Sequence record: PQ657771.1
Source of the DNA: Escherichia phage EC.P3
DNA length: 33,378 bases
Strand: one strand, 5' to 3'
The notes below the pieces were generated by a model. The model was not told where the DNA came from. It did no database searches and saw nothing but the letters and a program-made list of their open reading frames with translations. Below are positions 1 to 33,378 of the stretch, piece by piece. A program made the position numbers and the translations under genes. How positions within the stretch are numbered: the first letter of the stretch is position 1; each line of letters begins with the position of its first letter.

Positions 1-347
1 ATATTAGCCGCAGTTTCTTCAAGCTCTCGCCAGCGGTCAACAAGGCGAGCGGTGAACTCTGGCGACAACTGGGCAACAACAACAATACTATCTCGCTTAC
101 CTTGTTCGCCTTCGAAGACGTAATGCTCGTACTGAACATTGAACCCTAAGTTATTGATTCTTTCGGAAACCTCAATTTGAGGAAGCCGGATAACACCATT
201 TTTAGCCAGCGTTTCGATGGTACGTTTCACATTGTCATGACGCTTACCCACCAACTCAGCGATTTCAATGCTTGTCATTTTGATGGCATTGCCATTTATT
301 AACTCATTCATCGTCTGGTATTGAAGGGTTTGGGATGGGCTAAGCAT
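1..347 (-). CDS. Rha-like regulatory protein, N-terminal part; 3' end runs off window start and is frame-continuous with 32967..33378
   Basis: ATG at 347..345 overlaps upstream stop (ATGCTTAG); translation MLSPSQTLQYQTMNELINGNAIKMTSIEIAELVGKRHDNVKRTIETL resembles Phage_pRha HTH domain; open to position 1. Confidence 0.6.
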   Translation of the reverse strand, partial: MLSPSQTLQYQTMNELINGNAIKMTSIEIAELVGKRHDNVKRTIETLAKNGVIRLPQIEVSERINNLGFNVQYEHYVFEGEQGKRDSIVVVAQLSPEFTARLVDRWRELEETAAN

Positions 348-753
348 GGCTTTCACCATTAAAAAGTCGCTTGTAAGCATCAATGTCTCGTTTTGCTTCA
401 CCAAGCTTTCGTCTTAATTCCATGTTTTCTGATTCAAGCTTTTCCATGTCTTGCTGGTATCGATCGCGGTGTTCTTTCCATGCTTTTCGATACGCCTTCA
501 TGTATGTCGTATTGGCCTTTCTCTTTGCCTGACGAACCGCATGGTGGTTTTTCACAAACCAGTCAGGGTCGTTAAATGCTGCTCTGGCGCATGTATACCA
601 ATAATTTGTTGCCTCCCTGTTTAGCCAATAAATACTGATAAATGGCAACCGGATAGACACCATTTTTCGTTGTGACTCTTTCTCGCCAAACATGTGTCCT
701 TTTTTGATGCTAAGGCCAAATCCAGGTTGAATTAAAAGCATTGTCAGCCTCAT
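340..753 (-). CDS. hypothetical protein with basic coiled-coil C-terminus
   Basis: Start moved to internal ATG at 753 preceded by AGGAGGG and ATGA-overlapping the stop of 750..1046; no recognisable family. Confidence 0.45.
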   Translation of the reverse strand: MRLTMLLIQPGFGLSIKKGHMFGEKESQRKMVSIRLPFISIYWLNREATNYWYTCARAAFNDPDWFVKNHHAVRQAKRKANTTYMKAYRKAWKEHRDRYQQDMEKLESENMELRRKLGEAKRDIDAYKRLFNGESHA

Positions 754-1046
754 GCCGCCCTCCTGACGCCCTGCCCGATCGCTATCAATGCCGCTTTGGA
801 TACGGTAGTAAACATCCGTCGAGGACTGATGAACGGTCGCCAAATCAGCAGCATGGAGCCTTTGCTGTTTCCCTTCTTCTCCAGCCCCGTCGATGGTTCG
901 ATAAAATTAATCCGTCCATCAGTGATAATGCGAACTTCGTCGACACTCTCCAGAGCCTTGCTGAACCATCCGACTGACATATCCTCTGGCACAAGCATCA
1001 CTACCGTCTGTCGCTGTTGTATGCACTGCTCAGCGGCTTTTTCCAC
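750..1046 (-). CDS. hypothetical protein
   Basis: 98-aa ORF downstream of cII in the slot where lambdoid phages normally carry replication genes; no recognisable family. Confidence 0.4.
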   Translation of the reverse strand: MEKAAEQCIQQRQTVVMLVPEDMSVGWFSKALESVDEVRIITDGRINFIEPSTGLEKKGNSKGSMLLIWRPFISPRRMFTTVSKAALIAIGQGVRRAA

Positions 1047-1277
1047 CCACGGCCTGATATTGCTGTACGGTGGGTTATTCCAGATTGCACCGTGGCTTAC
1101 CCACTCAGAATTGAGCGCGTCGTCGGCCTCAGTTAGCCAGTGAGCACACAGAGCATTTTTGTCGCTCGCTGCCGAATCCAGCCAGAATCCAAACTCAATA
1201 TCCAGTGCATCAAAAAGCCAAAGCGGCGTTTGCCAGCAGTCCTTGTCGTGTGCTGGCGTATTTGATTTGATAGTCCC

Positions 1278-1574
1278 TCAGAATTGCATATCAATTTGCT
1301 TAAAATCCTCGGTGGCGGCCGGGGATTTTTTCTTTGTGATTTCATCAAGCGCATACTTAAAAGCCCTGCTAATCGGACTGATGTCTGATGCCATTCCGAA
1401 AGCACACAAGACCGAAGCAATAAATCTCCAGTCCGTTCTGCTTATCTTCGATTCATGACAGCCAATCATCTTTGCCAGACCGCGCTGGGTAAGCGTTGAT
1501 AGGTTGATGAGTAAATCTGTTTCTGCGCGATCAACGTCACGCTGTGATAGTTTGCTGTAACTTGTTCGTTCCAT
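1278..1574 (-). CDS. cII: CII-like transcriptional activator
   Basis: Translation ends KKKSPAATEDFKQIDMQF, matching the lambda CII C-terminus KKRPAATERSEQIQMEF; correct position after cro/nutR. Confidence 0.8.
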   Translation of the reverse strand: MERTSYSKLSQRDVDRAETDLLINLSTLTQRGLAKMIGCHESKISRTDWRFIASVLCAFGMASDISPISRAFKYALDEITKKKSPAATEDFKQIDMQF

Positions 1575-1612
1575 TTCTTAAGATTTCCAATAGTGAATAG
1601 TTAGTTGAAAGG

Positions 1613-1715: not shown

Positions 1716-1931
1716 TTAAGCGGCTTTGTGTTCCGGCGGGAACACGTCATCAAGACTTACTTTTGCGCCTAACTTATTTAGGCACGCAACAAGAGCACGG
1801 CATGTTTTAAGGTCTGGGAAGCGACGACCAGATTCCCAATGTCCGATAGCTCCCTGTGTGCATCCAACTGCCTTAGCAAGTGTTGTTTGAGAGATATTCA
1901 GTGACTCTCGATATTTTCGTAGGTTGCTCAT
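1716..1931 (-). CDS. cro: Cro-like HTH repressor
   Basis: Start moved to ATG 1931 (MSNLRKYRESLNISQTTLAKAVGCTQGAIGHWESGRR) preceded by GGAGGG; XRE-type HTH; divergent from CI-like gene. Confidence 0.7.
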   Translation of the reverse strand: MSNLRKYRESLNISQTTLAKAVGCTQGAIGHWESGRRFPDLKTCRALVACLNKLGAKVSLDDVFPPEHKAA

Positions 1932-2047
1932 ATGCCCTCCATAGTAACCTCGAATAAAAAATACAATATGTACTTTCCAAATACAAGCAAAAATACACAT
2001 TGTGCATGGATGGTTCCAGTACAGAGCGTAATAATAAGGACATGAAA
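1932..2047. promoter_or_regulatory. oR-like divergent promoter/operator region (pR and pRM equivalents)
   Basis: 116-bp AT-rich spacer between divergent cro and CI-like genes; contains CAATATGTACT, a motif recurring at pL, and repeated AATACA units. Confidence 0.5.
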
Positions 2048-2338
2048 ATGAAATGGTATGAACTGGCTAGATCCAGAATGAAAGAGCTCGGCATAACTCA
2101 AGAGAAGTTAGCCGAAGAGCTAGGTATGACGCAGGGTGGGATTGGACACTGGTTGCGCGGATCTCGTCATCCATCTCTTAGTGATATTGGTGTGGTGTTT
2201 AAATACCTTGGTATTGATAACATATCATTCAACCACGACGGGACATTTTCACCTGTTGGCGAATACTCATCGGCCCCAGTTAAAAAACAAGTGATAGGAA
2301 GTAAGTTTTATGTTGACGGCACAGTCAACTTGGCATAG
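2048..2338 (+). CDS. CI-like HTH repressor, short form without LexA/S24 autocleavage domain
   Basis: Start at ATG 2048 (AAGGA 7 nt upstream); MKWYELARSRMKELGITQEKLAEELGMTQGGIGHWLRG is an XRE HTH; about 97 aa, too short for a C-terminal peptidase domain. Confidence 0.6.
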   Translation: MKWYELARSRMKELGITQEKLAEELGMTQGGIGHWLRGSRHPSLSDIGVVFKYLGIDNISFNHDGTFSPVGEYSSAPVKKQVIGSKFYVDGTVNLA

Positions 2339-2421: not shown

Positions 2422-3279
2422 ATGAAGAAAGCAGCAATTTTAATTGATGCGGGTTTTTTCATGCAGCGTGTTCATGCTACGCATCGTAAACACTTCGCCG
2501 AGCATGAACTGACTGCGCAATGCATAATGAAAGTAATATGGTCAATGGTTCTTTCCCATCTTAATGGAAAACGTCAATCACAAGAACGTAGGGAACCGCT
2601 TGAGCTTTATAGAATTTACTTCTATGACTGTCCACCACTCGACATTCAAACACGCCTTCCACTTCCTGAGCCTGGCAATAAGACGCCTGGTCGCAAGAAT
2701 TTCAAACTCGAAAAATCATATATTCTGAGAACGGAGCTGCATGAAGAGTTAAGAAAAACTCGAAAAACAGCCTTAAGATTAGGGAATCTTGTTGATAATA
2801 AGCGATGGCAACTAACTACATTCTCCCTTGATGCTCTGATGAAAGGAACGAAAAAATGGGATGAACTGACAAATGATGATTTTTACTATGACATCAAACA
2901 AAAACAAGTTGATATCAAGCTAGGGATGGATATCACGACTTTAGCTTATGAAAAACTTGTTGATGTAATTGTCCTTGTTGCTGGGGACTCAGACTTTGTG
3001 CCTGCCGCCAAACACGCCAGAATTAAAGGTATTGATTTTATTCTTGATCCACTAAGACAGAATGTTACCCCATCACTGTCAGAGCACATTGATGGAGTTC
3101 AGTCATACAGCTTGATATCAGGACTTGCCGATGCTTTACATGTTGAGCCAGACCCGGCACCTGACTGGTGGGAAGATCGAAAAAAAGGCAAGCCTAGAGG
3201 AAAAAACAATAGCGGTAAACGCAGGTATGGAAACACTCAAGCTGAGTCTGCAAAGAAACATCAAAGAAATAAACGATAA
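2422..3279 (+). CDS. NYN-domain (PIN-like) putative nuclease with Lys/Arg-rich C-terminal tail
   Basis: N-terminal AILIDAGFF and later VLVAGDSDFVPAAKHARIKGIDF are NYN/LabA hallmarks with conserved acidic residues; C-terminus KKGKPRGKNNSGKRRYGNTQAESAKKHQRNKR; in the cI-to-N interval. Confidence 0.75.
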   Translation: MKKAAILIDAGFFMQRVHATHRKHFAEHELTAQCIMKVIWSMVLSHLNGKRQSQERREPLELYRIYFYDCPPLDIQTRLPLPEPGNKTPGRKNFKLEKSYILRTELHEELRKTRKTALRLGNLVDNKRWQLTTFSLDALMKGTKKWDELTNDDFYYDIKQKQVDIKLGMDITTLAYEKLVDVIVLVAGDSDFVPAAKHARIKGIDFILDPLRQNVTPSLSEHIDGVQSYSLISGLADALHVEPDPAPDWWEDRKKGKPRGKNNSGKRRYGNTQAESAKKHQRNKR

Positions 3280-3939: not shown

Positions 3940-4033
3940 CTTGTGTTGGTCGCCAGAAAATGAAATTAGGCAGCAAACCACTTATTTGGGATGTGGGGGC
4001 CTTTTTATATCAATCAAACAGAAGGAGCATCCT

Positions 4034-4204
4034 ATGCAACAGTTCGCTATTGCAGGGGCGGCATCGGTTCGCCCTTTCAACCCGATTTTATCGGTACAGC
4101 ATTCACGAAAAAATATTTTAACCGGAGCAGACTTTAAACAACCAAGAATGAAAAGTTTGCTCGAAAAGCTTTGGGATATTTTGAAACAACAAGGCCGTCC
4201 ATGA
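4034..4204 (+). CDS. hypothetical small early protein
   Basis: ATG 4034 with AGGAG 6 nt upstream; 56 aa; first gene after N. Confidence 0.4.
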   Translation: MQQFAIAGAASVRPFNPILSVQHSRKNILTGADFKQPRMKSLLEKLWDILKQQGRP

Positions 4205-4285
4205 GTTTTACGGATAACTGGTCAGACGAAGAATTCATTCGTCAGATGAACAAAATGCTCAATCAGCACAAAGAACAGGAGAAAG

Positions 4286-4597
4286 ATGATGATTCTGACT
4301 CTGAATGATAAGCGTGAAATATCGCAAATAATCGCAAGTTTTACTGATGAAGATTACGAACGAATCAACAGTGAAGTTGATCGCCTCTGCAAACGTTGCG
4401 ACCCAATAAGCGAAATGCTTCGCTCATATAAACCAGATGAACACACTAAGGACGCTATCGACTGGCTGGAAGATGATGACTGTAACTATCAGGAAAAAGC
4501 CGCTGAATGGTTCTGGGATGCAATAACCGAAAGAGTTAAGGCTGAATATGCCTTCGCAATATTCAAGCGCAGACACATTTTTGGAGAAGCAGCATGA
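4286..4597 (+). CDS. hypothetical acidic protein
   Basis: GGAG-type RBS; stop overlaps recT start (ATGA). Confidence 0.5.
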   Translation: MMILTLNDKREISQIIASFTDEDYERINSEVDRLCKRCDPISEMLRSYKPDEHTKDAIDWLEDDDCNYQEKAAEWFWDAITERVKAEYAFAIFKRRHIFGEAA

Positions 4598-5496
4598 GCA
4601 ATATCGTTGAATTCGTTAAACAGCAGGAGCAGTTATTCTGCGGAGCATTGACTGAACAGACGGTGACATGGGCTAAGGAAAGCCAGTTTGCAATTCAGTA
4701 TTTCCAGAAAAACGATTACCTGGCTAAAACGGCACTGGCAAATCCAACCAGCGCACAGAACGCCATCATCAATGTTGCGGCGATCGGCATCACCTTAAAC
4801 CCGGCCAGCAAACTTGCTTATCTAGTTCCGCGCGACGGCATGGTTTGCCTTGATATCAGCTATATGGGATTACTTCATCTTGCGCAATCGACAGGCTCAA
4901 TTAAGTGGGGGCAATGCAAACTGGTGTACTCAAACGACACCTATGAATCAAATGGCCTTGATTCAGCACCAACTCACAAATACAACGCATTTGGAGAGCG
5001 AGGCTCTATTGTTGGTGGTTATTGCACGGTAAAAACAGCAGATGGTGACTACCTGACTGAAGAAATGAGTCTGGCAGAAATTAAAGCAGTGGAAGCAACG
5101 AGCAAGGCAAAGAATGGACCGTGGAAAACATTCTGGGAAGAGATGGCGCGTAAAACAATAGTTAAACGCGCCAGCAAATACTGGCCTAAAGCCCAGCGAC
5201 TGGATAATGCCATTCACCTGCTTAACGAAGATGAAGGTATGCATCAGGAACCAGTTATGCCGCACAAATCAGAGGAAGATATCCGCGAAGATGAACGGAA
5301 ACTCCAGCAGGAAATAATGGATAAAGCACAACTTCTTTGCGATGAAATGGCTCAGGCAGAAAACATGGATGATTTGAAGCGATATTTTGCAGAAGCATAT
5401 CGCCTGACATCTGGAATGAAATTGCAGCAGAACGTACAAGCCATTTACATAGAATGCAAAGCGAAACTGGAGGTTGCCAGTGAGCAAACTGTATGA
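4594..5496 (+). CDS. recT: RecT-family single-strand annealing recombinase
   Basis: 300-aa translation with RecT-like core (NGPWKTFWEEMARKTIVKRASKYWPK). Confidence 0.85.
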   Translation: MSNIVEFVKQQEQLFCGALTEQTVTWAKESQFAIQYFQKNDYLAKTALANPTSAQNAIINVAAIGITLNPASKLAYLVPRDGMVCLDISYMGLLHLAQSTGSIKWGQCKLVYSNDTYESNGLDSAPTHKYNAFGERGSIVGGYCTVKTADGDYLTEEMSLAEIKAVEATSKAKNGPWKTFWEEMARKTIVKRASKYWPKAQRLDNAIHLLNEDEGMHQEPVMPHKSEEDIREDERKLQQEIMDKAQLLCDEMAQAENMDDLKRYFAEAYRLTSGMKLQQNVQAIYIECKAKLEVASEQTV

Positions 5497-5962
5497 AATA
5501 GCCAATGAATACGCAAAGCTGATGGATTCAGATTTAGAGCCAGAGATGATTGCTGACACAATAGAAGGCATGGAAGGAGAATTTACCGATAAAATAGAGC
5601 AACTTCTTGCCATTATTAAAAATGAATCTGGTTATGCTGAACGCCTCAAGGACGAGGCAAAGTCGCTGAATGAGCGAGCCGCAGTAATTCAAAATAAGAT
5701 TGACAGCATCAAATCATATATAGCGTCATCGCTTGAAATGGTTGGCAAGAAAAATATTCGAGCAGGTATTCACCAGGTAACAATCCGCAAACCGTCAGAA
5801 ATTGTAGAAATCATCGACTCAAGCGCCATTCCTCCTGAATACGTTGAGTTTGAAACGACAATTAAAGCCGACAAACTGGCAATCAAACACCAACTAAAAG
5901 CAGGAATAAATATCCCCGGCGCTCAACTCAAAGTTGGGAAACCTTCACTTCTTATCAAATAA
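5474..5962 (+). CDS. Gp157-like protein
   Basis: 162-aa coiled-coil protein directly after and overlapping recT, the usual position of Sipho_Gp157-family genes; family assignment from memory. Confidence 0.5.
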   Translation: MPVSKLYEIANEYAKLMDSDLEPEMIADTIEGMEGEFTDKIEQLLAIIKNESGYAERLKDEAKSLNERAAVIQNKIDSIKSYIASSLEMVGKKNIRAGIHQVTIRKPSEIVEIIDSSAIPPEYVEFETTIKADKLAIKHQLKAGINIPGAQLKVGKPSLLIK

Positions 5963-5973
5963 CGGTATCGACT

Positions 5974-6204
5974 ATGAAAAAGACTCCATGGGAGAAATGG
6001 GAAGTCGATTTCTTGCGCGAAGTAGCGGCGACAATGCCAGTTGAAGTTATCGCTGAAAAACTGGAAAGGACTGAAAAAGCAGTAATGGCGAAAGCAACAA
6101 GGATTGGCGCTGACATTGTTAGCCGACTTCGTGGAAGACGCTGGACAAGAGCCGAAGTATCACTTTTCGGTAAGTTCTCCGCAGAAGAAAGTGAACAAGA
6201 TTGA
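5974..6204 (+). CDS. hypothetical protein
   Basis: 76-aa ORF with plausible RBS; no recognised family. Confidence 0.4.
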   Translation: MKKTPWEKWEVDFLREVAATMPVEVIAEKLERTEKAVMAKATRIGADIVSRLRGRRWTRAEVSLFGKFSAEESEQD

Positions 6205-6598
6205 CTATCAGGCACTGCGTGAAAAGGCAGAGAAAGCCGGTGAAGATAAGTGGCAGGCTAAAAAAATAAATGGTGATTTTTTCGTTATTCGTCACGGTAG
6301 CTATACAAGACAGCATGGCTACACATCGTATCAACCCATTGCGGAGATTGATTGTAAGCCAGTCCGGGATTTTGTTGCCAAGGCTAATCCGGCTACCGTG
6401 CTGGAATTACTGGATGAACTGGAAGCAGCAAAAAAGCGCATTGCAGTATGGCTATTGCCGCAAGTTACACCATGCATCTCTACTGTGATTGTCGCCAGTG
6501 TACAAATGGTAAATATCAAACGCCAGACTTCGGTGAATATATCGGTACGTCATGGGCTGGCTGTGCAAAAGAGGCGCGCAAGGATGGCTGGCGAATAA
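6191..6598 (+). CDS. Ead/Ea22-like protein
   Basis: GTG start assumed at 6191; motif NPATVLELLDELEAAKKRIA typical of Ead/Ea22-like proteins; 3' part overlaps ORF 6448..6657 in another frame. Confidence 0.5.
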   Translation: MNKIDYQALREKAEKAGEDKWQAKKINGDFFVIRHGSYTRQHGYTSYQPIAEIDCKPVRDFVAKANPATVLELLDELEAAKKRIAVWLLPQVTPCISTVIVASVQMVNIKRQTSVNISVRHGLAVQKRRARMAGE

Positions 6599-6657
6599 GC
6601 AAAGACAAAACGCGTGCTTTTGCGCCCGGGCATAAAGTTTTGAGGATTAACAAATGA
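6448..6657 (+). CDS. small Cys-rich protein; may be frameshifted C-terminus of the Ea22-like gene
   Basis: MHLYCDCRQCTNGKYQ; overlaps previous ORF by about 150 nt; stop overlaps next start (ATGA). Confidence 0.35.
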   Translation: MAIAASYTMHLYCDCRQCTNGKYQTPDFGEYIGTSWAGCAKEARKDGWRISKDKTRAFAPGHKVLRINK

Positions 6658-7115
6658 CCACTATTACCAAAGAGCGACTGCTGACAATCAAGCAGTGGCG
6701 CGAAACATACGGACCTGGTAGCAACGTTGTACTGCCAGCAGAAGAAGCGGAAGAACTGGCACGAATTGCTCTGGAATCGCTGGAAGCAGAGGCAGTTATG
6801 TTCTGTATATCAGGACAAAATGTAGATTCAGAAGAACATGTATCAACCAGCAAAGCGGTTGTTGATGCCTGGGTTGAAGAATGGAATCAGGTTGACGGAA
6901 GTCCTGGCGAACCACTGTACAAAACTATGCCACTCTACTATCACGCTGCCTTGCCAGCGCCGGTAGTGCCGGAAGAAGCAACTCCGGAAAACGTAGAAAT
7001 GCTCTCTGGCTATGTTTCCACGTACAAATTAACCGATAGCGAGCGCGATATTGCTGCCGAAATATGGAACGCCTGCCGCGCCGCCATGCTAAACAAGGAG
7101 GAGAACAATGGATAA
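6654..7115 (+). CDS. hypothetical acidic protein
   Basis: 153 aa; translationally coupled at both ends. Confidence 0.5.
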   Translation: MTTITKERLLTIKQWRETYGPGSNVVLPAEEAEELARIALESLEAEAVMFCISGQNVDSEEHVSTSKAVVDAWVEEWNQVDGSPGEPLYKTMPLYYHAALPAPVVPEEATPENVEMLSGYVSTYKLTDSERDIAAEIWNACRAAMLNKEENNG

Positions 7116-7806
7116 TCGATATGAAATAGCAGAACAAAATGGCATGAGCCTAGAGTTCGCTGACTGGTTCTTTGATAACAAAAAAGATGGCTGTGGAAAC
7201 GCTTGGTTCGTGATGATGGCTGCCATGTGGGAAGGCTGGAAAGGCCGGGCAGAACCGCCATTTCCGGAAATACAGGCTGATGTCGCGCAAGCAATTGAAA
7301 ATCTCAAGCAGAAGTTAGTGGAATGCAATCGCTATAACTACTGCGCAGATGCAGTAAAGGGCGTAGAGGATGCCTGCCACGCTGCCATGCTTCAGGGTAG
7401 CCAACCTGTAAGCCAAACTTACAAGTTGCCAGTTAATACACCTTGCCAAGATGCGCCAGCCCATATCTGGCTGCAAACAGCTGGAGTATGGCCAGAAGAT
7501 GGCGAGTTAAGCGAATTAACGTGGTGCAGCCACAATCAGCACCATGATGACACGCTATATGTTCGAGCTGACTTGGTAAATGGCAATTCTCCGGTAACTC
7601 CGGATGGCTGGATAAGCTGTAGTGAGCGAATGCCGGAGAAATACGATTTCGATATCTGGGTATTCTCTCCATCCAGAGGCGTTATTGACGGGCTACAGTG
7701 GGATGGCTCGATGTTTACTGATGATGAATATCAGTTCGTTATTCATGACGCCACGCATTGGATGAGAAAAGCATATCCAGCAGAACCGCAGCAGGATGGT
7801 GAATGA
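7108..7806 (+). CDS. DUF551-like domain protein
   Basis: C-terminal WISCSERMPEKYDFDIWVF resembles DUF551, common in enterobacterial prophage early regions. Confidence 0.55.
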   Translation: MDNRYEIAEQNGMSLEFADWFFDNKKDGCGNAWFVMMAAMWEGWKGRAEPPFPEIQADVAQAIENLKQKLVECNRYNYCADAVKGVEDACHAAMLQGSQPVSQTYKLPVNTPCQDAPAHIWLQTAGVWPEDGELSELTWCSHNQHHDDTLYVRADLVNGNSPVTPDGWISCSERMPEKYDFDIWVFSPSRGVIDGLQWDGSMFTDDEYQFVIHDATHWMRKAYPAEPQQDGE

Positions 7807-7932
7807 TGCCGCCAGTTAAAGTTGTGATTATCACTTTGGTGATGATAGTGATTGCGAGAATCATGTCTGGTGAAGTTTGGTGGATATGGTAATGGCTAAG
7901 GCAGCAGCAGAGCGCAACATTGGAGACAAGAA

Positions 7933-8277
7933 ATGTCAGATTTGGCTATGAAGGTTTTGAAATGGCAATCAACTGGCGATGTCGGCATCAGTAGCGCAAC
8001 TCTTGCCTCAATCGCGTGTGGACTGAAAAAGAATATCTATGGTCATCACTTCGGCGCTCCACATGACGCAGCCGATTTCCGGCGATGCGTTGCACTTGTT
8101 GAGCAGATTCCAGAAATCAGAGATTCATTCGACAAGGTTGCAAAGCGCGTTCCGGCATTCAAAGGAATCCTCAACGAATGGGATTCACTCGTTGCTCTGT
8201 TGAAGTCTGAAATGAAGACGTACGGGAACAAAGCACCAGAGACTTACAGAAGAATCAGCGAGCTACGCAAGGACTAA
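7933..8277 (+). CDS. hypothetical protein
   Basis: 114-aa ORF, last gene of the plus-strand early operon; followed by hairpins. Confidence 0.5.
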   Translation: MSDLAMKVLKWQSTGDVGISSATLASIACGLKKNIYGHHFGAPHDAADFRRCVALVEQIPEIRDSFDKVAKRVPAFKGILNEWDSLVALLKSEMKTYGNKAPETYRRISELRKD

Positions 8278-8280
8278 CCC

Positions 8281-8341
8281 GCCTCACACTCGATGAGGCC
8301 TGTTCATATCTGATAGAGCCGCTGTATGGCGGTTTATTTTT
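8281..8341 (+). terminator. tandem hairpins ending the early operon
   Basis: GCCTCA-CACTCGA-TGAGGC (8281..8299), then AGCCGC-TGTATG-GCGGTT followed by TATTTTTG. Confidence 0.55.
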
Positions 8342-8356
8342 GCCTGGAGAATTAAG

Positions 8357-8548
8357 ATGACCGATACCAGCCTGATTCCTGAGAAAGAAGTGATGAACAA
8401 GCTCGGTGTTTCATCACGTCAGACAATCTGGAACTATACCAAACGGCACGGATTTCCGAAGCCAGTCAGAACCCACCCCAAATCATACCTTCGTGAAGCT
8501 GTTGAAGGGTGGATTCTTAACGGTGGCGTTAATCAGAAATGCTCCTGA
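8357..8548 (+). CDS. AlpA-family DNA-binding protein (excisionase/regulator candidate)
   Basis: GGAG RBS; EKEVMNKLGVSSRQTIWNYTKRHGFPKPV fits the AlpA/Xis HTH pattern; 3' end overlaps the convergent integrase by about 20 nt. Confidence 0.6.
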   Translation: MTDTSLIPEKEVMNKLGVSSRQTIWNYTKRHGFPKPVRTHPKSYLREAVEGWILNGGVNQKCS

Positions 8549-9707
8549 TGTGCCAGAACAATTTATCAGCGTGAAGCTCATACGCTTTGCGCTGAGCCTC
8601 TATCCAGTCGTGTTTATTGTACACGGACATTATCCCGCCAAGTTCATGACCGAGCATTCGCTCAGTAACATGAGGCTCGACATTCATCTCGGACAGACGT
8701 GTAACAAGCGTTCTTCTGAAATCATGTGTTCGCCAGTAACCCAGATCCATCCCTCCCCTTATTCTATTTACGAATCGGTTGGCTGCAGCGATGCTGATCG
8801 GTTTGTTTATGTCTTCTCCAGGGAAAAGAACATCATTGTACGTTGTCATGGCCTTTTCGAGAAAAGGCTTAATTTGTTCGAAGATTGGACGGCGGATAAC
8901 ATTACCCATCTTGCTATGCTCTTTCGGTACGGTCCATACGTTGTCCAGCAGGTCAAATTCTGTCTTTGTTGCCAGCCTAAGCTCTGAGAGCCTCGCCCCC
9001 CACAGCATAAGCATCTGATGAAGGAGCTTATTTGACGTAGACGCACGGCTTCTTTCAATAGCAAGCCAAATCTTAGCCAGTTCGTGATACGACAGTACCC
9101 GATCCCCTACCTCAGCGCGGGAGCCGAAGTCCCTTGGTTGGATGCTCATAATTGCGCAACTATCTATCAACTGACGCCGCATGCACCAACTTATTGCTGA
9201 TCTTAGTTGACTTAGCACCTGCCTTGCTCGGCGTGGATTATCTCTTTCTTCTTCGGTAAGCAGGTCAACCCATTGCTTAACCGTGATAGAAGATGCCGGA
9301 CGATTAGGAAAGGCGTCATGCATGCGCTTCATAACCGTTGATCGGTAAAGTGCCTGGGTCTTTTCTCTGAGAGTTGTAGAGACGTAGTTGTCGAACCAGT
9401 AGTCGAGACACTGAGCGACCGTCATGGAGTTCTCCACCTTCTCTTCAAAATAGGTGCGTGGATCCGTTCCTGAGAAATAGAGCTTTCGCAAGTCAGCAGT
9501 GATCTGTCTGGCATCCTTCAAAGACAGGGATGGGTATCGACCAAGCCCAAGTCGATTAGGCTTGCCATGCCAGCGATAGCGGTACTGGAACTGGATGACA
9601 CCCTTCGGTGAAATTCGTACGCTGAGGCCATCGGCATCAGCCACTTCTTGTGGGCCCGAATATGGTTTACCATAAATAGTACGCAGTTTTGTGTCGCTTA
9701 TAGCCAT
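8529..9707 (-). CDS. int: tyrosine integrase, P4-type with N-terminal arm-binding domain
   Basis: 392 aa; N-terminal DGLSVRISPKGVIQFQYRYRWHGKPNRLGLGRYPSLSLKDAR typical of P4-like integrases; C-terminal HDFRRT and HELGG..SVY consistent with the catalytic region. Confidence 0.9.
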   Translation of the reverse strand: MAISDTKLRTIYGKPYSGPQEVADADGLSVRISPKGVIQFQYRYRWHGKPNRLGLGRYPSLSLKDARQITADLRKLYFSGTDPRTYFEEKVENSMTVAQCLDYWFDNYVSTTLREKTQALYRSTVMKRMHDAFPNRPASSITVKQWVDLLTEEERDNPRRARQVLSQLRSAISWCMRRQLIDSCAIMSIQPRDFGSRAEVGDRVLSYHELAKIWLAIERSRASTSNKLLHQMLMLWGARLSELRLATKTEFDLLDNVWTVPKEHSKMGNVIRRPIFEQIKPFLEKAMTTYNDVLFPGEDINKPISIAAANRFVNRIRGGMDLGYWRTHDFRRTLVTRLSEMNVEPHVTERMLGHELGGIMSVYNKHDWIEAQRKAYELHADKLFWHIRSISD

Positions 9708-9715
9708 AAATAATA

Positions 9716-10010
9716 TTTGGTACGCTCAGAAATAATAGTTTGGTACACATCTGGTACACAATATCACATGGACAACAGCGCACAGTAAACAACTATATTT
9801 GACGTTCGTAGACATACTCAGGTGAAAAAATGGTTGTTTTTCGAGTTATAACAGACAGTTAATTAACTACAGTGGACAATGCTAGACAATGACAGACACA
9901 GATAAACAACCTACCTTCCTCTTTCACGATTACGCGAAACGCCCCTGAGAACCGCCATGAACAAGGGTTTCATGATTTGTGATTTTAGTTTGGTACGCAA
10001 TTTGGTACAC
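9716..10010 (+). repeat. five direct copies of (T)TTGGTACRC, candidate integrase arm-type sites
   Basis: Copies at 9716..9725, 9739..9748, 9751..9759, 9989..9998, 10001..10010, same orientation; ATATCACAT at 9761..9769 and 10089..10097. Confidence 0.55.
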
Positions 10011-12455: not shown

Positions 12456-13334
12456 TCAGTAGTTATGTACTGAAGGAGGTAATTCTTTATTCTTAAGTCT
12501 CATCCATGCGGAAAGATTCGTTGGTCCGTCTGGCTCATTGATATCAACATCTCGTGTGTGATTGATTAAAACGTCTCTCGCCATATCGATAATACGGGAG
12601 AACTCATAACCGCAGTCATGACATCTGCCGGAATAGTTCGATTGAATTTGTTTTAGCGCCGGATACAGTTCGCGGAATAATGCCTGTGAGCGGTTGGCAT
12701 AATCCCATAACCATACAAGGCTGTTTGCTTCTTTTGCAGAAAGCTCGTTGGTTTTCTTCTCTTGTTTGCCGATGAATTCACCTTCAAGCACTACCCTGTG
12801 GATGTACTCTACGGCTTGCGGGATTTGTTCAATTGAAAGTTCATCAATGCTGTCAATACCAAAACGCTGATGAACCATATTGTATGCATCGTCATAGCGA
12901 AGTCCTTTCTTTCCTACCAGCATGTTTACTGCATCGCGTAGCGGTGTTCTTTCCTCAACAGTGGTTTTCTTTCCTTTTACATACTCGCCATGTTTGCGAA
13001 TTGAAGGCAGAACTTCTGCTGTTACCCACTTGCGGAATTTGTGCGGGACTGAACCTTTATTGACTGCATCGCGGCAGCGCAGAACCAATGTATACATACC
13101 TGATTCGCTCACAATGCTTAGATTCTGCTCACCACCAAGGGTGTAACTTAAAGTTACTCCCTTTTCATCGTCATCAAGTGCAGTAAGCGCCTTGCGTGAG
13201 TTAGTCAGGGTTAAAGCATCACAAACATCTTTTGCTACAAACCACGGCTCACCGCACTTGTTGATGACGCGGATTTCACTGTCGCCGAATTTGAAGATGG
13301 TGAAATCGTTTTGTGCCTTTGCTATACTTTTCAT
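12456..13334 (-). CDS. ant: antirepressor (BRO-N domain)
   Basis: [33 protein letters not shown] is a BRO-N signature; downstream of arc as in P22 immI; start set to ATG 13334 (AGGAAAT upstream), alternative TTG at 13400. Confidence 0.7.
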
Positions 13335-13396
13335 GTCAATATTTCCTAATCCGATTTGTTGATGCCGAAGCCCTGACTGTTCCCGCAGTTGGGGCT

Positions 13397-13666
13397 TCAA
13401 CGTTTTTCCACTTCATTTTGAATTTGCTTAAGTAGCATATTTGTCTCGTCAAGCCTCTTGTTAATACGGTCAAGGCTTTCTACTAAATCGTTATGTGCAT
13501 GTGATACTTCGTAATTTGAGACTGATTTCTTTTCCTCTATCGTCTTTGTCAATCGTTCCCCTGATTGATACATATTGATTAACGATGTAAAAATCACGAG
13601 CAAGCAAACTACAATGATTGCGCCAGACAAAAATTGTAAAGAACGATCAAGCAATGACACCTTCAT
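13397..13666 (-). CDS. small membrane-anchored coiled-coil protein
   Basis: One N-terminal hydrophobic helix ([19 protein letters not shown]) then heptad-like charged segment; coupled to the arc stop; lies between arc and ant. Confidence 0.5.
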
Positions 13667-13815
13667 ACCGCCACCCCCTCTCTCTTCAGGCTGTCTATCA
13701 GGCGCTTGATAACCTCTGAGTTAAACGACCTGCACTCTTCCTTTGCCTTGCTACCGATAGCATCCTTTAACGACTGCGGCATCCTTACCAAAATCTTACT
13801 TATTTCTTTCTCCAT
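13663..13815 (-). CDS. arc: Arc-like ribbon-helix-helix repressor
   Basis: Start at ATG 13815 with GGAGGG 5 nt upstream; MEKEISKILVRMPQSLKDAIGSKAKEECRSFNSEVIKRLIDSLKREG matches the Arc fold and RS.NSE motif. Confidence 0.75.
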   Translation of the reverse strand: MEKEISKILVRMPQSLKDAIGSKAKEECRSFNSEVIKRLIDSLKREGVAV

Positions 13816-13929
13816 GTTACCCTCCACACAAACAACTCTTTTCGAATACAAAAGATAGCAAAGTGAGTATATCTAGTCAAAATTTTTTTGCATACACTTT
13901 GATATCAAATTGAATACCAAAGGTGTGAT
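13816..13929. promoter_or_regulatory. divergent Pant/Pmnt-like promoter-operator region
   Basis: 114-bp AT-rich spacer between divergent arc-like and mnt-like genes; inverted repeats CAAAGTG (13859..13865) and CACTTTG (13895..13901). Confidence 0.5.
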
Positions 13930-14178
13930 ATGGCAAAGGGTGTGTCAATTTCTCCAACTACGGTAAGAATCCCTGAATCTTTACGCGAGGCTCTTGCTGT
14001 CAGAGCATCAAAAAATGGTCGCTCTGTTAACTCCGAGATCGTCATGATTTTGCAAGCCGCGATTGATGAAGATAGGTCGCCAAAGTCAGTTGAGTCATTT
14101 GCTCAGCAAGAAGCTGACAAATTCAAAGAGGCGCTGCTTGAGACGCTAAAGACCATGTATGGTAAGGATGAAAAATAA
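13930..14178 (+). CDS. mnt: Mnt-like ribbon-helix-helix repressor
   Basis: 82 aa; RIPESLREALAVRASKNGRSVNSEIVMILQAAI and C-terminal KFKEALLETLKTMYGK parallel P22 Mnt, including the tetramerisation tail. Confidence 0.8.
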   Translation: MAKGVSISPTTVRIPESLREALAVRASKNGRSVNSEIVMILQAAIDEDRSPKSVESFAQQEADKFKEALLETLKTMYGKDEK

Positions 14179-14714
14179 TGCTGCACACAATTCATTTCTT
14201 ATGCCCTGTTAACACTGCCACTGTTGGGCAACTTCAGAACCACTGTCTCACCGCATTATCTCAAGGCGCAACTGAATTAAATATCCATATATCAAGTCAG
14301 GGAGGGGAAACTGCTGCTGGCTTTACTGCGTATAACTTTCTTAAGTCACTCCCTGTTACCGTTAGAACTCACAACATAAGCAATGTTGAATCCATAGCTA
14401 ATATCGTTTTCCTGGCTGGCTCAGAACGTTTCGCAAACCCATTATCAAGATTCCTGTTACATCCTCTATTATGGGGCTTTGCCACCCCAGCCGCCGACCA
14501 TGCCAGATTGAGAGAGTACGGGAAATGCCTCGATAACGATCTTGATCGCTTCGTTGAGACGTTCAATATCGACATCGGAACCCATATTAGGTGGGCATCC
14601 CTGATAGCAGACTCGACCATTTTGGATGCTAACAAGGCTCTTGAGCATGGCATAATTAATTCCATAAAAACTGCAAGGCTGGTATCCAATCAGGCAAACT
14701 GGTGGGTTGTTTGA
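14178..14714 (+). CDS. ClpP-like serine peptidase (S14-like fold)
   Basis: Aligns by eye to ClpP: NIHISSQGG vs INSPGG, ESIANIVFLAG vs AASMGAFLLTAG (Ser retained), LLHPLLWG vs MIHQPLGG (His retained), Asp present downstream; start overlaps mnt stop (TAATG). Confidence 0.7.
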   Translation: MLHTIHFLCPVNTATVGQLQNHCLTALSQGATELNIHISSQGGETAAGFTAYNFLKSLPVTVRTHNISNVESIANIVFLAGSERFANPLSRFLLHPLLWGFATPAADHARLREYGKCLDNDLDRFVETFNIDIGTHIRWASLIADSTILDANKALEHGIINSIKTARLVSNQANWWVV

Positions 14715-14740
14715 TGGGTAAATCATGATTACTCCTTATA

Positions 14741-14766
14741 AAAAACCCACCTGACGGTGGGTTTTA
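14741..14766. terminator. bidirectional rho-independent terminator between convergent genes
   Basis: AAAAA-CCCACC-TGAC-GGTGGG-TTTT, exactly between the ClpP-like stop (14714) and the 140-aa gene stop (14767). Confidence 0.7.
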
Positions 14767-15189
14767 TTAGTGCTTGTATAGCTTGAACTCCCTGTCGAGC
14801 CATAAGACATAAAAAGTGGCTCCTATCTTATAACCAACCATAGGTGCCTTAGAGCAAAATCTGAACGCAATGAAATCCACATCTTGAGTAACATGCTTAG
14901 GAATCGGAGCCTTTATCGCGTTTCTGGCAATTTTTTCCGTCCCAAGCCCGTGTTTATCAGATTTTCGTATCTCATCCCATGACATCTGACTTAACCTGAA
15001 CAGCCTATCTGCAAATGCTGCCTTTTCATGCTTTTGGCAGCAATCTAGGCAATACCCCTTTTGTAGGTATCTAAGAGAAAATACAGGCGGACTTTTGTCT
15101 ACATCATGAGATTCGTGATGGATAGAGAGGCCAACAGTAGCAGAGCTCTCTTTATCCCTCTGTTTTATTCTTCCCTTAACTCTAGACAT
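14767..15189 (-). CDS. unrecognised 140-aa protein, candidate toxin/effector partner of the Panacea protein
   Basis: 5 nt downstream of the DUF4065 gene on the same strand; no transmembrane segment; no family recognised. Confidence 0.5.
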   Translation of the reverse strand: MSRVKGRIKQRDKESSATVGLSIHHESHDVDKSPPVFSLRYLQKGYCLDCCQKHEKAAFADRLFRLSQMSWDEIRKSDKHGLGTEKIARNAIKAPIPKHVTQDVDFIAFRFCSKAPMVGYKIGATFYVLWLDREFKLYKH

Positions 15190-15194
15190 ACACG

Positions 15195-15644
15195 TCAGTT
15201 AATTAACGTTTTGAAAAAACCTTTCATAGAATCAAGTGTGATTTCTTGGCTAACCGCACCCTCAATGTAAGCATCTTTCCATGGCTGCTCTTCGTGAGTC
15301 ATATTGCGCAGTTTCCAGGCAGAAAACTGACCATAAACTTTATACACCTCATCCAGCAATTCAATTTCATCTTCACTGAATTTTTTAGCGTCAAAGTTTT
15401 CTGGCGCAGGTAAAGCTCCGTTACCACAGTCCCTATATTTACGATACAATTCAGGAACTACTGGCCCATGCATCCAGGCTTCAATTTTCTCATTAAATAG
15501 CGGTTTACCCAGAAGAACCAGAGAAAACCCTTGGGCATAATACGTCAACTTCTGAATTTTTAGGTTAGAGATAATGTCGCCACTTTCTTCATCGCAATGC
15601 GCCAAGAAGTAGTCGGCGACATCAAAACAAGTGAGCATAAACAT
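15195..15644 (-). CDS. Panacea-domain (DUF4065, GepA/SocA-like) protein, candidate antitoxin
   Basis: CFDVADYFLAHCDEESGDIISNLKIQKLTYYAQGFSLVLLGKPLFNEKIEAWMHGPVVPELY matches the DUF4065 core pattern. Confidence 0.7.
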   Translation of the reverse strand: MFMLTCFDVADYFLAHCDEESGDIISNLKIQKLTYYAQGFSLVLLGKPLFNEKIEAWMHGPVVPELYRKYRDCGNGALPAPENFDAKKFSEDEIELLDEVYKVYGQFSAWKLRNMTHEEQPWKDAYIEGAVSQEITLDSMKGFFKTLIN

Positions 15645-31620: not shown

Positions 31621-32007
31621 TCATCGAAGGCATTGCGTCCTGATGTACTCCTGCAGGTAGTTAACCTGCGCGGTTATCCTGTCGATTCCACTTCGGAGAC
31701 GGTAATAATTGAGTTCAGCATCTGCTGTAAGTCTTGGGCTTTCTCCATCGCCCATGCTGCTGGCTCCGGTCGTTGACTTTGCACAGATGGCGGCGACTTG
31801 CAGGCGCTTACGACCAGCAGAAACATCAGCACGGAGACTTTCGATAGTCGCGTTAGCATCAGCAAGCTCCTTTGTGTATCTGGCGTCAAGTTCTGCTACA
31901 TCACGTTGACGCTTCTGCATGTCAGCGATTGTGGATGTGGCCTTATCGCGCTGCTCTTTATAGGCGATTGTGGCGACCGGTGCTGATCTCCGGTTTGCTG
32001 CAACTGC
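31621..32007 (-). pseudogene. Rz: Rz (i-spanin) remnant lacking in-frame N-terminal membrane anchor
   Basis: Frame reads AVAANRRSAPVATIAYKEQRDK...MQKRQRDVAELDARYTKELADA...QCLR, homologous to the lambda Rz periplasmic domain; in-frame TAG at 32008..32010 and no start before Met 31920; a Rz-anchor-like stretch SALIVVV sits in another frame. Confidence 0.5.
31674..31859 (-). CDS. Rz1: Rz1-like o-spanin lipoprotein embedded in Rz frame +1
   Basis: MLTRLSKVSVLMFLLVVSAC with lipobox LVVSAC then Pro-rich segment; embedded as in lambda. Confidence 0.6.
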   Translation of the reverse strand: MLTRLSKVSVLMFLLVVSACKSPPSVQSQRPEPAAWAMEKAQDLQQMLNSIITVSEVESTG

Positions 32008-32063: not shown

Positions 32064-32321
32064 TCAGCCTGTGCATTCACCACAACGATAAGAGCACTGC
32101 GCGGCACCTTTCACCAATTCCGCGAGGTCTGCGGGTCGTCTTCCCCTCTTGCCCTGTTTGACTATCAGGACGCCGTTAACTATTGCGTGACGCTCGCCTT
32201 TGCTGTCTCTGTTGTACTTGAGCACTGTTCCTCTTGCACAGGAAAGCCTCCTCGCCACTTCGGTCTGATTGCCTCGTGTCTGGATAAGAAGTTCTGGTAT
32301 CGTTTGAATTGTGGCGTTCAT
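32064..32321 (-). CDS. ninH: NinH-like protein with about 25-aa non-homologous C-terminal extension
   Basis: First 57 aa (TIPELLIQTRGNQTEVARRLSCARGTVLKYNRDSKGERHAIVNGVLIV) resemble lambda NinH; extension runs toward the Rz remnant. Confidence 0.6.
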   Translation of the reverse strand: MNATIQTIPELLIQTRGNQTEVARRLSCARGTVLKYNRDSKGERHAIVNGVLIVKQGKRGRRPADLAELVKGAAQCSYRCGECTG

Positions 32322-32680: not shown

Positions 32681-32967
32681 GGCTTAATCTTCCCCTCCTT
32701 CAGCAGTATCGCCTGCGTCCTGATCACGCCTTCGAGGTGGTAAAGTCTGGCGTCTTTGTTGTCGAGATTATGGGTGCGTCGGTCGATTTCATCGTGACAC
32801 GCGCTACAAGCCCATGCGCCGATCAGGTCGTCAGGCTTCATTCCCGTTCCGCAAATTCCAGCCATCCGGTAATGTGCCAGAACTGTAGTTTCAGGATTGC
32901 CATTGCATACGCCGTAAATACGTACCTGACATTCTCTGCCGCGTGCTTCTTTGCGTAGATTGGCCAT
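32677..32967 (-). CDS. DUF1364 (YbcO-like) nin-region protein
   Basis: RGRECQVRIYGVCNGNPETTVLAHYRM...GAWACSACHDEIDRRTH matches the YbcO pattern as recalled; directly upstream of rusA as in DLP12. Confidence 0.7.
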   Translation of the reverse strand: MANLRKEARGRECQVRIYGVCNGNPETTVLAHYRMAGICGTGMKPDDLIGAWACSACHDEIDRRTHNLDNKDARLYHLEGVIRTQAILLKEGKIKP

Positions 32968-33378
32968 TAAGCAGCCTCCCCTGTTACTTTCAGCATTCCG
33001 TTATCGAGCAGCTTTCTGGTCAGCCACTGTTGGCCACGCCCGGTGATTTTTGTGGTGAACGATATCTGTATTCCGTGATTTGTATTGACCGCTGTTTCTT
33101 TCACTGTGAAATAGCCGCGATCCATATATTCCTGCATTGGCACATTGCGCCGGGAACCTGAAGCAATAAGGATTTTGTGATCGCGCATCCACGCAAACAG
33201 TTTGTTTTGACCAATTCCAACAACCTTTGCAAAGTTTCCAATCAAAATTCCGCTGGCCTCGCCAACGCGATCGGCAAACTCAACTTTAGGTGCGGCAATT
33301 GCGAGCTGGTTTTCCAGTTGCATTTTCTGCTCAGCAAGATCAGCAGCAAGGCGCAACGCTTCTGGTAGCGTTTTGGGG
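32967..33378 (-). CDS. KilAC-type antirepressor C-terminal part; 5' end runs off window end and is frame-continuous with 1..347
   Basis: PKTLPEALRLAADLAEQKMQLENQLAIAAPKVEFADRV linker then KilAC-like core; ORF open to position 33378. Confidence 0.65.
   Translation of the reverse strand, partial: PKTLPEALRLAADLAEQKMQLENQLAIAAPKVEFADRVGEASGILIGNFAKVVGIGQNKLFAWMRDHKILIASGSRRNVPMQEYMDRGYFTVKETAVNTNHGIQISFTTKITGRGQQWLTRKLLDNGMLKVTGEAA

Follow-up and report, generated by a model that had tools for sequence, protein, structure and literature searches.

The closest described relatives of the element investigated in this study are lambdoid coliphages that carry a lambda-type replication module directly downstream of cII, which comprises the initiator gene O, an origin (ori) whose iterons are located within O and the gene encoding P. 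Its parental type is represented by Escherichia phage vB_EcoP_E212 (MZ043897.1; Lederbergvirus; 38,252 bp), which is viable and releases 125 PFU per cell in a burst (PMC10345575). In all ten natural contexts of the NYN gene that is found in identical form next to CI, the order is cII, replication module, NinB and Dam, with the module consisting of either O and P, O and DnaB, or an HTH_36 protein and a Toprim protein, and in two of these contexts (L017 and L019) IS elements interrupt replication genes (P and O). The parental sequence immediately following cII is present in at least 120 IMG/VR contigs and, among the 43 IMG/VR loci that combine this sequence with a dam farther downstream, the distance between cII and dam amounts to 2,429–4,857 bp (median 3,106 bp) with a single exception. 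This exception, L038, is a natural deletion in which codons 1–20 of O are fused to about codon 26 of dam, and a cII'-'PHROG-1511 fusion protein (P0074), which adjoins an IS3-family element, is encoded in E. coli CP074963.1. Both precedents illustrate that the loss of the replication module by deletion is a known fate of lambdoid prophages.

The DNA analysed here, to which we refer as the window, is a stretch of 33,378 nucleotides from Escherichia phage EC.P3 (PQ657771.1). Its comparison to E212 by megablast and by an exact walk along shared blocks has defined the whole window as an E212-type genome, with all shared blocks, about 31.8 kb in total, being 100% identical and containing no mismatches. 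These blocks are collinear and circularly permuted, which places the window in the E212 lineage of the P22-like genus Lederbergvirus. The block walk has identified no substitutions, 11 deletions relative to E212 (39, 320, 52, 407, 2,427, 167, 133, 922, 1,116, 255 and 254 bp), which add up to 6,092 bp, and a single 1,530-bp segment of the window that replaces 313 bp of E212. Both genomes share the gene order, the cI-cro-cII immunity region, dam, the PHROG-1511 gene, roi and the nin genes, together with the virion, packaging and integration modules. In contrast, O, ori, P, ren, NinB, NinE, NinF, Q, holin, endolysin, Rz and CI in their full length and a small number of early-left ORFs are found in E212 and are lacking in the window. 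The 1,530-bp segment is an immI region (ant/arc/mnt-like) that encodes an Ant-type antirepressor and Arc/Mnt-like proteins and that is 99.97% identical to the natural prophage L009, whereas E212 contains a fragment of IS21 istB instead. The possibility that the window is a simple edit of the E212 record is ruled out by this window-specific segment.

Since roi reads on across the ends of the window without a stop, giving 240 aa in the joined translation, the window represents a circularly closed genome that was opened inside roi. It is continuous across position ~9905, where the homology to the integrated prophage L009 stops, and both integrase and attP are intact. Host DNA at split att sites, as found in an integrated cryptic prophage, is absent from the circularly closed window. 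The circular, attP-intact form of this genome contrasts with a gene content that is not viable.

At its start, the minus strand of the window harbours a lambdoid PR operon (cro, cII and roi), whose features are compiled in Table 1 alongside the junctions described below. A sequence-only reading had noted that cII and a Rha/KilAC gene enclose a short interval with two small ORFs and no recognisable replication module. The flanking genes and both ORFs are confirmed, with the interval from cII to roi encompassing 966 bp (312..1277).

Table 1. Features of the cII–roi region and their counterparts; positions refer to the window unless E212 is named.
Feature	Position	Strand	Evidence
Roi-type Rha/KilAC antirepressor-like gene, N-terminal part	1..311	-	PF09669, E = 7.3e-10
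NinF/roi deletion junction, 133 bp (E212 9061-9193)	313..314	.	block map, junction sequences
137-aa ORF, start ATG	340..753	-	PHROG 1511, E = 1.7e-86, profile positions 1-133 of 133
NinE deletion junction, 167 bp (E212 8461-8627)	746..747	.	block map, junction sequences
98-aa ORF, C-terminal 98 dam codons from internal GTG	750..1046	-	ORF list
Dam-type DNA N6-adenine methyltransferase frame, 175 codons + stop	750..1277	-	PF05869, PHROG 111, TIGR01712
cII/dam deletion junction	1273..1276	.	window 1274 = E212 5506; window 1273 = E212 7934
cII, 98 aa, intact	1278..1574	-	PF05269, E = 6.3e-32; 100% identical to E212 5206..5502
cro	1716..1931	-	HTH_3
Roi gene, C-terminal part	32967..33378	-	contiguous with E212 9191..9918
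NinE in E212	E212 8454..8630		PF05322, E = 4.2e-43
NinF in E212	E212 9027..9203		PF05810

The origin of the short interval becomes apparent in megablast alignments, which break at window position 1274/1275. On either side of this break, the cI-cro-cII part and the dam-roi part each match many lambdoid phages, in which the two parts stand kilobases apart. The comparison with the closest full-length relative, which had been proposed as a check, reveals a clean deletion of 2,427 bp in the window, corresponding to E212 5507-7933 or, equivalently, as a consequence of a 2-nt GA overlap, to 5505-7931. The deletion extends from 4 nt past the cII stop to the third base of the dam ATG, whose 'AT' is lost. 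At the resulting junction (...TTC TGA GG/GA CT ATC AAA..., with the slash marking the joint), the TGA stop of cII (1280..1278) is preserved and is directly followed by the dam frame, by chance in the same phase. The removed segment contains O in its entirety (PF04492, E = 5.7e-36), the helicase loader P (PF06992, E = 4.5e-62), a 96-aa homologue of ren, the recombination gene ninB (PF05772, E = 1.2e-54) and four 20-nt lambda-type ori iterons (TATCCCTCAAAACGAGGGAA), which are located inside O at E212 5882-5968. A single deletion of 2,427 bp would have excised the whole lambda-type replication module of an E212-type temperate coliphage. With a probability of about 0.9, we consider the window to be a deletion derivative of such a phage, with its replication module excised and with dam and a nin-region gene as leftovers, neither of which would be replicative.

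The absence of a replication module after cII is borne out by our analysis, and it extends to the entire window, where profile scans, tblastn and an iteron scan have located none elsewhere. Scans of the two ORFs and of all early-region ORFs against Pfam, PHROGs and NCBIfam detected no replication protein, and a PDB sequence search with the two interval ORFs returned no initiator. On the early-left side, the ORFs encode NYN, N, a PHROG-3486 protein, RecT, a Gp157/Gam-like protein, an Ead/Ea22-like protein, DUF551 and integrase. The circularised window was further searched in six frames by tblastn with proteins from lambdoid relatives as queries, which included O, P, ren, NinB, two further O-family and two HTH_36 initiators, two DnaB-type helicases and two Toprim primase-helicases. 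In this search, the overall best match (E = 0.03; 27.7 bits over 28 aa) does not identify a replication protein. An O-family initiator (PF04492) is absent from the window, with three O proteins as queries giving a best tblastn E-value of 0.29, and the same holds for P (PF06992), a DnaB-type helicase and a primase-helicase, for which the best tblastn E-value is 0.03. Neither an initiator among the two ORFs nor a helicase or primase elsewhere in the element, either of which would have spoken against the sequence-only reading, was thus encountered in a directed search.

A similar picture emerges for the origin. The region 300..1600 contains no direct repeats, the lambda iteron core has no match in the whole window at up to three mismatches, and the tandem repeats found in the window are all trivial. 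The inspection of the interval for iterons and AT-rich origin features, which had been recommended, was negative, with no AT-rich dip across 340..1280, where the GC content ranges from 0.42 to 0.51, and an array of iterons of about 18–20 nt with an adjacent AT-rich region is absent. The window, in contrast to its closest relatives, contains no O, no P and no iterons of the lambda-type module.

Both ORFs of the interval had been described as unrecognised, which does not apply to the first. Profile and structure searches have assigned the 98-aa ORF to the C-terminus of Dam and the 137-aa ORF to PHROG 1511, with the latter being of unknown function, and neither of them to an initiator. The first is part of a larger frame of 175 open codons, which directly adjoins the cII stop and which matches PF05869 with an E-value of 1.5e-64 and a score of 217 bits (cutoff 28.1) over profile positions 1–167 of 169, and the equivalog model TIGR01712 with 264 bits (cutoff 97). 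Codons 2–175 are identical to Dam of E212, with the frame corresponding to E212 7934-8460, whereas codon 1 is GGG instead of ATG. As a consequence of this conversion at the junction, full-length Dam lacks a canonical initiation codon, and the frame contains no in-frame ATG, GTG or TTG ahead of the GTG at 1046 (codon 78). A canonical start as required for an expressible Dam is thus missing. The 98-aa ORF results from starting a reading frame at the first canonical start codon, as is evident from the full dam frame around the internal GTG (...IWNNPPYSNIRPW/VEKAAEQ..., with the slash placed ahead of the GTG-encoded residue). The catalytic (D/N)PPY motif is present in the 750..1277 frame as NNPPYS and it is located upstream of the GTG at 1046, which is why a product of 98 aa would be expected to be an inactive part of Dam. 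We therefore suggest annotating this ORF as a start-less dam.

The second ORF consists of a 133-aa nin-region protein, whose native start is at position 741 (MLLIQPGF...), and of four codons derived from the start of NinE. These reflect the 167-bp deletion, which fuses the NinE ATG, overlapping with the dam stop, in frame to the PHROG-1511 gene, whose own ATG is changed to CTG, and which thus explains the length of 137 rather than the native 133 aa. The same arrangement of NinE and the PHROG-1511 gene is found in ETEC1738 (PGAP annotation). On the opposite side, the 133-bp deletion removes most of NinF together with the ribosome-binding site of roi. PHROG 1511 is annotated as being of unknown function and the 137-aa protein matches no curated family in Pfam or NCBIfam. 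It has 80 homologues in enterobacterial prophages, all of which are unnamed, and is 98% identical to a cluster with 966 members. An AlphaFold2 model calculated from an alignment of 24 sequences (pLDDT 76.9) predicts a small four-stranded sheet, short helices and a C-terminal helix of about 60 residues. In a Foldseek search of the PDB, this model found no match (best E = 3.1) apart from coiled-coil noise, and in BFVD it matched its own family alone. A match of the interval ORFs to CagS was dismissed as sub-threshold coiled-coil noise (19.8 bits compared to a cutoff of 27). In E212, in Stx phages and in E. coli prophages, the PHROG-1511 gene resides between NinE and NinF, with a complete O/P or O/DnaB module lying upstream, and the family accompanies complete replication modules, of which three types are represented.

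These assignments bear on the proposal that either the pair of small proteins or the cII–roi interval itself constitutes an unrecognised compact replication system, which we reject as highly improbable. It draws on a negative fact, namely that the 133-aa protein has neither an assigned function nor an informative structural match. The proposal is at odds with the identification of the two ORFs as Dam, whose C-terminal part is the supposed 98-aa protein, and as a nin-region protein, and with the fact that both genes occur without a single base difference in E212, a phage equipped with O, P and ori of its own. It also disagrees with the placement of the 133-aa family next to complete replication modules of three types in nin regions, with the lack of iterons, direct repeats or an AT-rich stretch in 300..1600 and with the predicted combination of a sheet and a coiled-coil helix, which is unlike winged-helix initiators, helicases or primases.

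The excision of the replication module is accompanied by further lesions in the E212-type derivative. The C-terminal (S24) domain of CI is deleted. A 922-bp deletion has removed Q and 300 bp downstream of it, which we take, by analogy to lambda, to be the site of the lambdoid PR'/qut, and it has eliminated the stop of ninH, thereby extending NinH by 23 aa. In the lysis region, the 1,116-bp deletion has removed the holin and the endolysin together with residues 1–31 of Rz, as found in a six-frame search. Conversely, the genes of terminase, portal, capsid, tail and injection proteins, the int-attP region, N, RecT and Gp157 are all retained at 100% identity. Missing replication and lysis genes had been held responsible for much of the reduced genome size, which is the case if the deletion of Q is included, with the three deletions of 2,427, 1,116 and 922 bp accounting for 4,465 of the 6,092 bp missing compared to E212.

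In light of the established biology of lambda, theta replication of the lambda type would be impossible for a genome without initiator, loader and origin, and O and P supplied by a helper could not rescue it, since the origin itself is deleted. Of the two modes that had been envisaged for this element, replication with a helper would thus be unlikely, as the lambda-type origin was lost along with O and P, whereas exclusively passive replication is the most reasonable consequence of the absent initiator, loader and origin. Lacking the replication module, Q, the lysis genes and the C-terminal domain of CI, the element is multiply defective and would be expected to persist in no other form than as a prophage that is integrated and replicated passively.

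The retention of the virion and packaging genes, of int-attP and of N, RecT and Gp157 at 100% identity might also be expected from a naturally streamlined, P22-like hitchhiker, for which a co-resident lambdoid phage would supply replication, late-gene activation and lysis. This would be in accordance with the losses, all of which concern functions that a lambdoid helper could in principle provide in trans, and with the common presence of several lambdoid prophages in ETEC and other E. coli, where matching segments occur 1–10 times per genome (median 2). If true, such an element would represent a satellite at the moment of its emergence. However, the cis-acting origin is gone, which would leave O and P of a helper without a target, and so is the PR'/qut region, whose placement rests on knowledge from lambda and whose absence would probably deprive a helper Q of its target. 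No second copy of any junction was detected in the public data searched, and there is thus no sign of a spreading lineage, and known satellites bring their own replicon. Together, these points make a helper-dependent lifestyle very improbable. We are equally sceptical about a version in which the element would be amplified by processes such as recombination-dependent or in-situ replication and in which N-antiterminated transcription from PR could proceed through the shortened nin region into the late genes, with Q, PR' and tR' being gone.

A distinct question concerns the way in which the deletions arose. Their endpoints are located within 5 nt of a CDS boundary in 8 of 22 cases, compared to 0.56 expected in simulations (P<5e-5). 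At the 11 junctions, the overlaps amount to 0, 0, 0, 0, 2, 0, 3, 1, 3, 0 and 0 nt, with a mean of 0.8 nt compared to 0.67 nt for random joins. The junctions map to window positions 313/314, 746/747, 1273/1274, 2290/2291, 3335/3336, about 3988-4011, 6446/6447, 7918/7919, 31965/31966 and 32135/32136. Microhomology was considered as a sign of natural illegitimate recombination and was rejected, since the overlaps are no greater than random. The junctions were searched by exact-pattern scans in IMG/VR, GTDB genomes and JGI metagenomes and by megablast in phage records and E. coli genomes. The cII/dam junction is absent from IMG/VR, GTDB genomes, JGI metagenomes, 5,426 E. coli genomes and 50,697 phage records. 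Searches for the Q and lysis junctions in IMG/VR and E. coli genomes were likewise negative, as were those for the NinE and NinF junctions in E. coli genomes and for the CI junction in IMG/VR. Similarly, the four protein products that are specific to junctions have no exact match in the gene index. These unrecorded junctions, the odd set of deletions and the circular, attP-intact form touch on the origin of the deletions but not on the content of the interval.

It is thus conceivable that the deletions are not natural and that the window is a laboratory construct, an in-silico edit or an artefact of assembly or curation, derived from an unsampled sibling of E212 that contains immI. We consider such an origin possible, although doubtful. 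It is compatible with our assignment of the interval as leftover dam and nin-region sequence. With such an origin, the module would be truly missing from the sequence, yet its loss would say nothing about biology. A non-natural origin would account for the finding of 11 deletions and no substitutions over about 31.8 kb, for endpoints that hug CDS boundaries (8 of 22 within 5 nt) and for junction overlaps at the level of random joins. It would also be in line with losses that correspond to exactly the named functional genes (the C-terminal domain of CI, O, P, ren, NinB, NinE, NinF, Q, S, R and Rz), with four junctions that are absent from IMG/VR despite the presence of the parental sequence in at least 120 contigs, with a cII/dam junction that is found in none of five collections and with junction proteins that are missing in the gene index. 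Finally, it would accommodate a non-viable gene set that is nevertheless contained in a circular, attP-intact genome, a simple decayed prophage being expected in integrated form.

Other features are less easily reconciled with such an origin. The window contains a 1,530-bp immI where E212 has the IS21 istB fragment and hence is not an edit of the E212 record, and this immI is 99.97% identical to that of a natural prophage. A careful designer would have spared the start codons of dam and of the PHROG-1511 gene and the stop of ninH. Overlaps of 0–3 nt are too short for errors in De Bruijn assembly, which require long shared k-mers, and natural deletions of the same replication module exist in L038 and CP074963.1. 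On balance, natural decay does not account for the pattern of deletions any better than a construct, an edited sequence or an artefact would. This pattern is unusual and calls for a check of where the sequence comes from ahead of any evolutionary conclusion.

For the E212-type deletion derivative that we propose, the element should be labelled as replication-, Q- and lysis-defective and not as a novel compact replicon. The impact on biology is small, since a simple deletion in a phage already known explains the missing module and both leftover ORFs belong to known genes of the nin region. Among known systems, satellites such as P4-like elements, PICIs and cfPICIs resemble the window in being smaller than the helper-type phage and in lacking some essential functions. 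Satellites carry their own replicon, consisting of a primase or rep with an ori, but few or no virion genes, whereas the window contains a complete P22-like set of virion genes and no replicon, and thus does not classify as a satellite. A closer correspondence concerns cryptic or 'grounded' lambdoid prophages, in which deletions likewise extend from within or just after cII or O into the nin region. However, these prophages are integrated remnants in which IS elements and divergent sequence are frequent, whereas the window is circular with an intact attP, is free of IS elements and substitutions, and displays breakpoints that closely follow gene boundaries.

A comparison of the whole window with the viable Lederbergvirus vB_EcoP_E212 (E212, MZ043897.1) has revealed 11 deletions and no substitutions, with 8 of the 22 deletion endpoints lying no more than 5 nt from a CDS boundary, compared to an expected number of 0.56. 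A search for the tested deletion junctions did not find a copy in any public collection searched.

The consequences of these deletions are illustrated in the genes for lysogeny, late control and lysis. A 407-bp deletion (E212 4083-4489) has removed the C-terminal S24 peptidase/dimerisation domain of the CI repressor and shifted its frame, leaving a remnant of about 95 native residues (HTH_3) that is followed by a short out-of-frame tail. In the late control region, a 922-bp deletion at junction 32135/32136 accounts for the absence of the antiterminator Q (PF03589) together with 300 bp downstream of it, the latter of which likely included the PR'/qut region. The same deletion has eliminated the stop codon of ninH, which thus encodes a protein that is longer by 23 residues. 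Finally, the holin, the endolysin and residues 1-31 of Rz, which constitute its membrane anchor, are gone as a result of a 1,116-bp deletion at junction 31965/31966.

As a separate observation, the exact sequence of the NYN-domain protein encoded next to cI is listed in 4,791 index blocks, where it adjoins immunity regions of several different types.

Where cII now precedes dam, the TGA stop codon of cII shares its reading frame with dam, which lacks a start codon (TGA GGG ACT ATC..., window 1275..1280, minus strand), and a GAGG motif is found just 5' of the ATC codon in this frame. Read-through of the stop codon would consequently yield a predicted cII-Dam fusion. Since an in-frame placement is expected by chance in one of three cases, the arrangement is probably coincidental.

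Two independent natural events have deleted the replication module that is missing here from the same type of backbone, one in locus L038 and the other in the E. coli locus L020, whose cII'-'PHROG-1511 fusion protein (P0074) is annotated as 'CII family transcriptional regulator'. Sibling P22-like prophages (L005-L008) encode the identical Ant protein and carry large deletions in the structural region that differ by strain, for example a portal-coat fusion of 982 aa in L007 and the placement of gp16 directly after the portal gene in L005.

Features of the window and of related loci (positions refer to the window unless another sequence is named)
Feature	Position	Strand	Remarks
Deletion junctions	313/314, 746/747, 1273/1274, 2290/2291, 3335/3336, ~3988-4011, 6446/6447, 7918/7919, 31965/31966, 32135/32136		comparison with E212
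Truncated CI repressor ORF	2006..2338	+	junction 2290/2291, comparison with E212
NYN-domain protein, 285 aa, PHROG 5783	2422..3279	+	directly downstream of cI
immI-like region, 1,530 bp	12628..14157		
Accessory cluster	14178..15644		between injection genes and immI
Rz remnant, 99 aa from internal Met	31621..31920	-	
Extended NinH ORF	32064..32321	-	deletion junction 32135/32136
L038 (IMGVR_UViG_2703718811_000001)	about 5745-6126 (after reorientation to cII strand)		O'-'dam in-frame fusion
P0074 / L020 (E. coli CP074963.1)	8001-8366		cII'-'PHROG-1511 fusion protein
L005-L008 (E. coli draft genomes)			P22-like sibling prophages, yfdC / tRNA-Arg site

The accessory cluster encodes a ClpP-like serine protease (178 aa), a MAG6450-like protein (140 aa) and a SocA/Panacea-domain antitoxin-like protein (149 aa), and it may constitute a defence or toxin-antitoxin moron. 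The neighbouring immI-like region, which contains a 292-aa Bro-N/P22_AR_C antirepressor, Arc/Mnt-like repressors and an 89-aa ORF, is found at 99.97% identity in the prophage L009 (GCA_022977415.1). This region is absent in E212, where it is replaced by a 313-bp C-terminal fragment of IS21 istB with an IS end.
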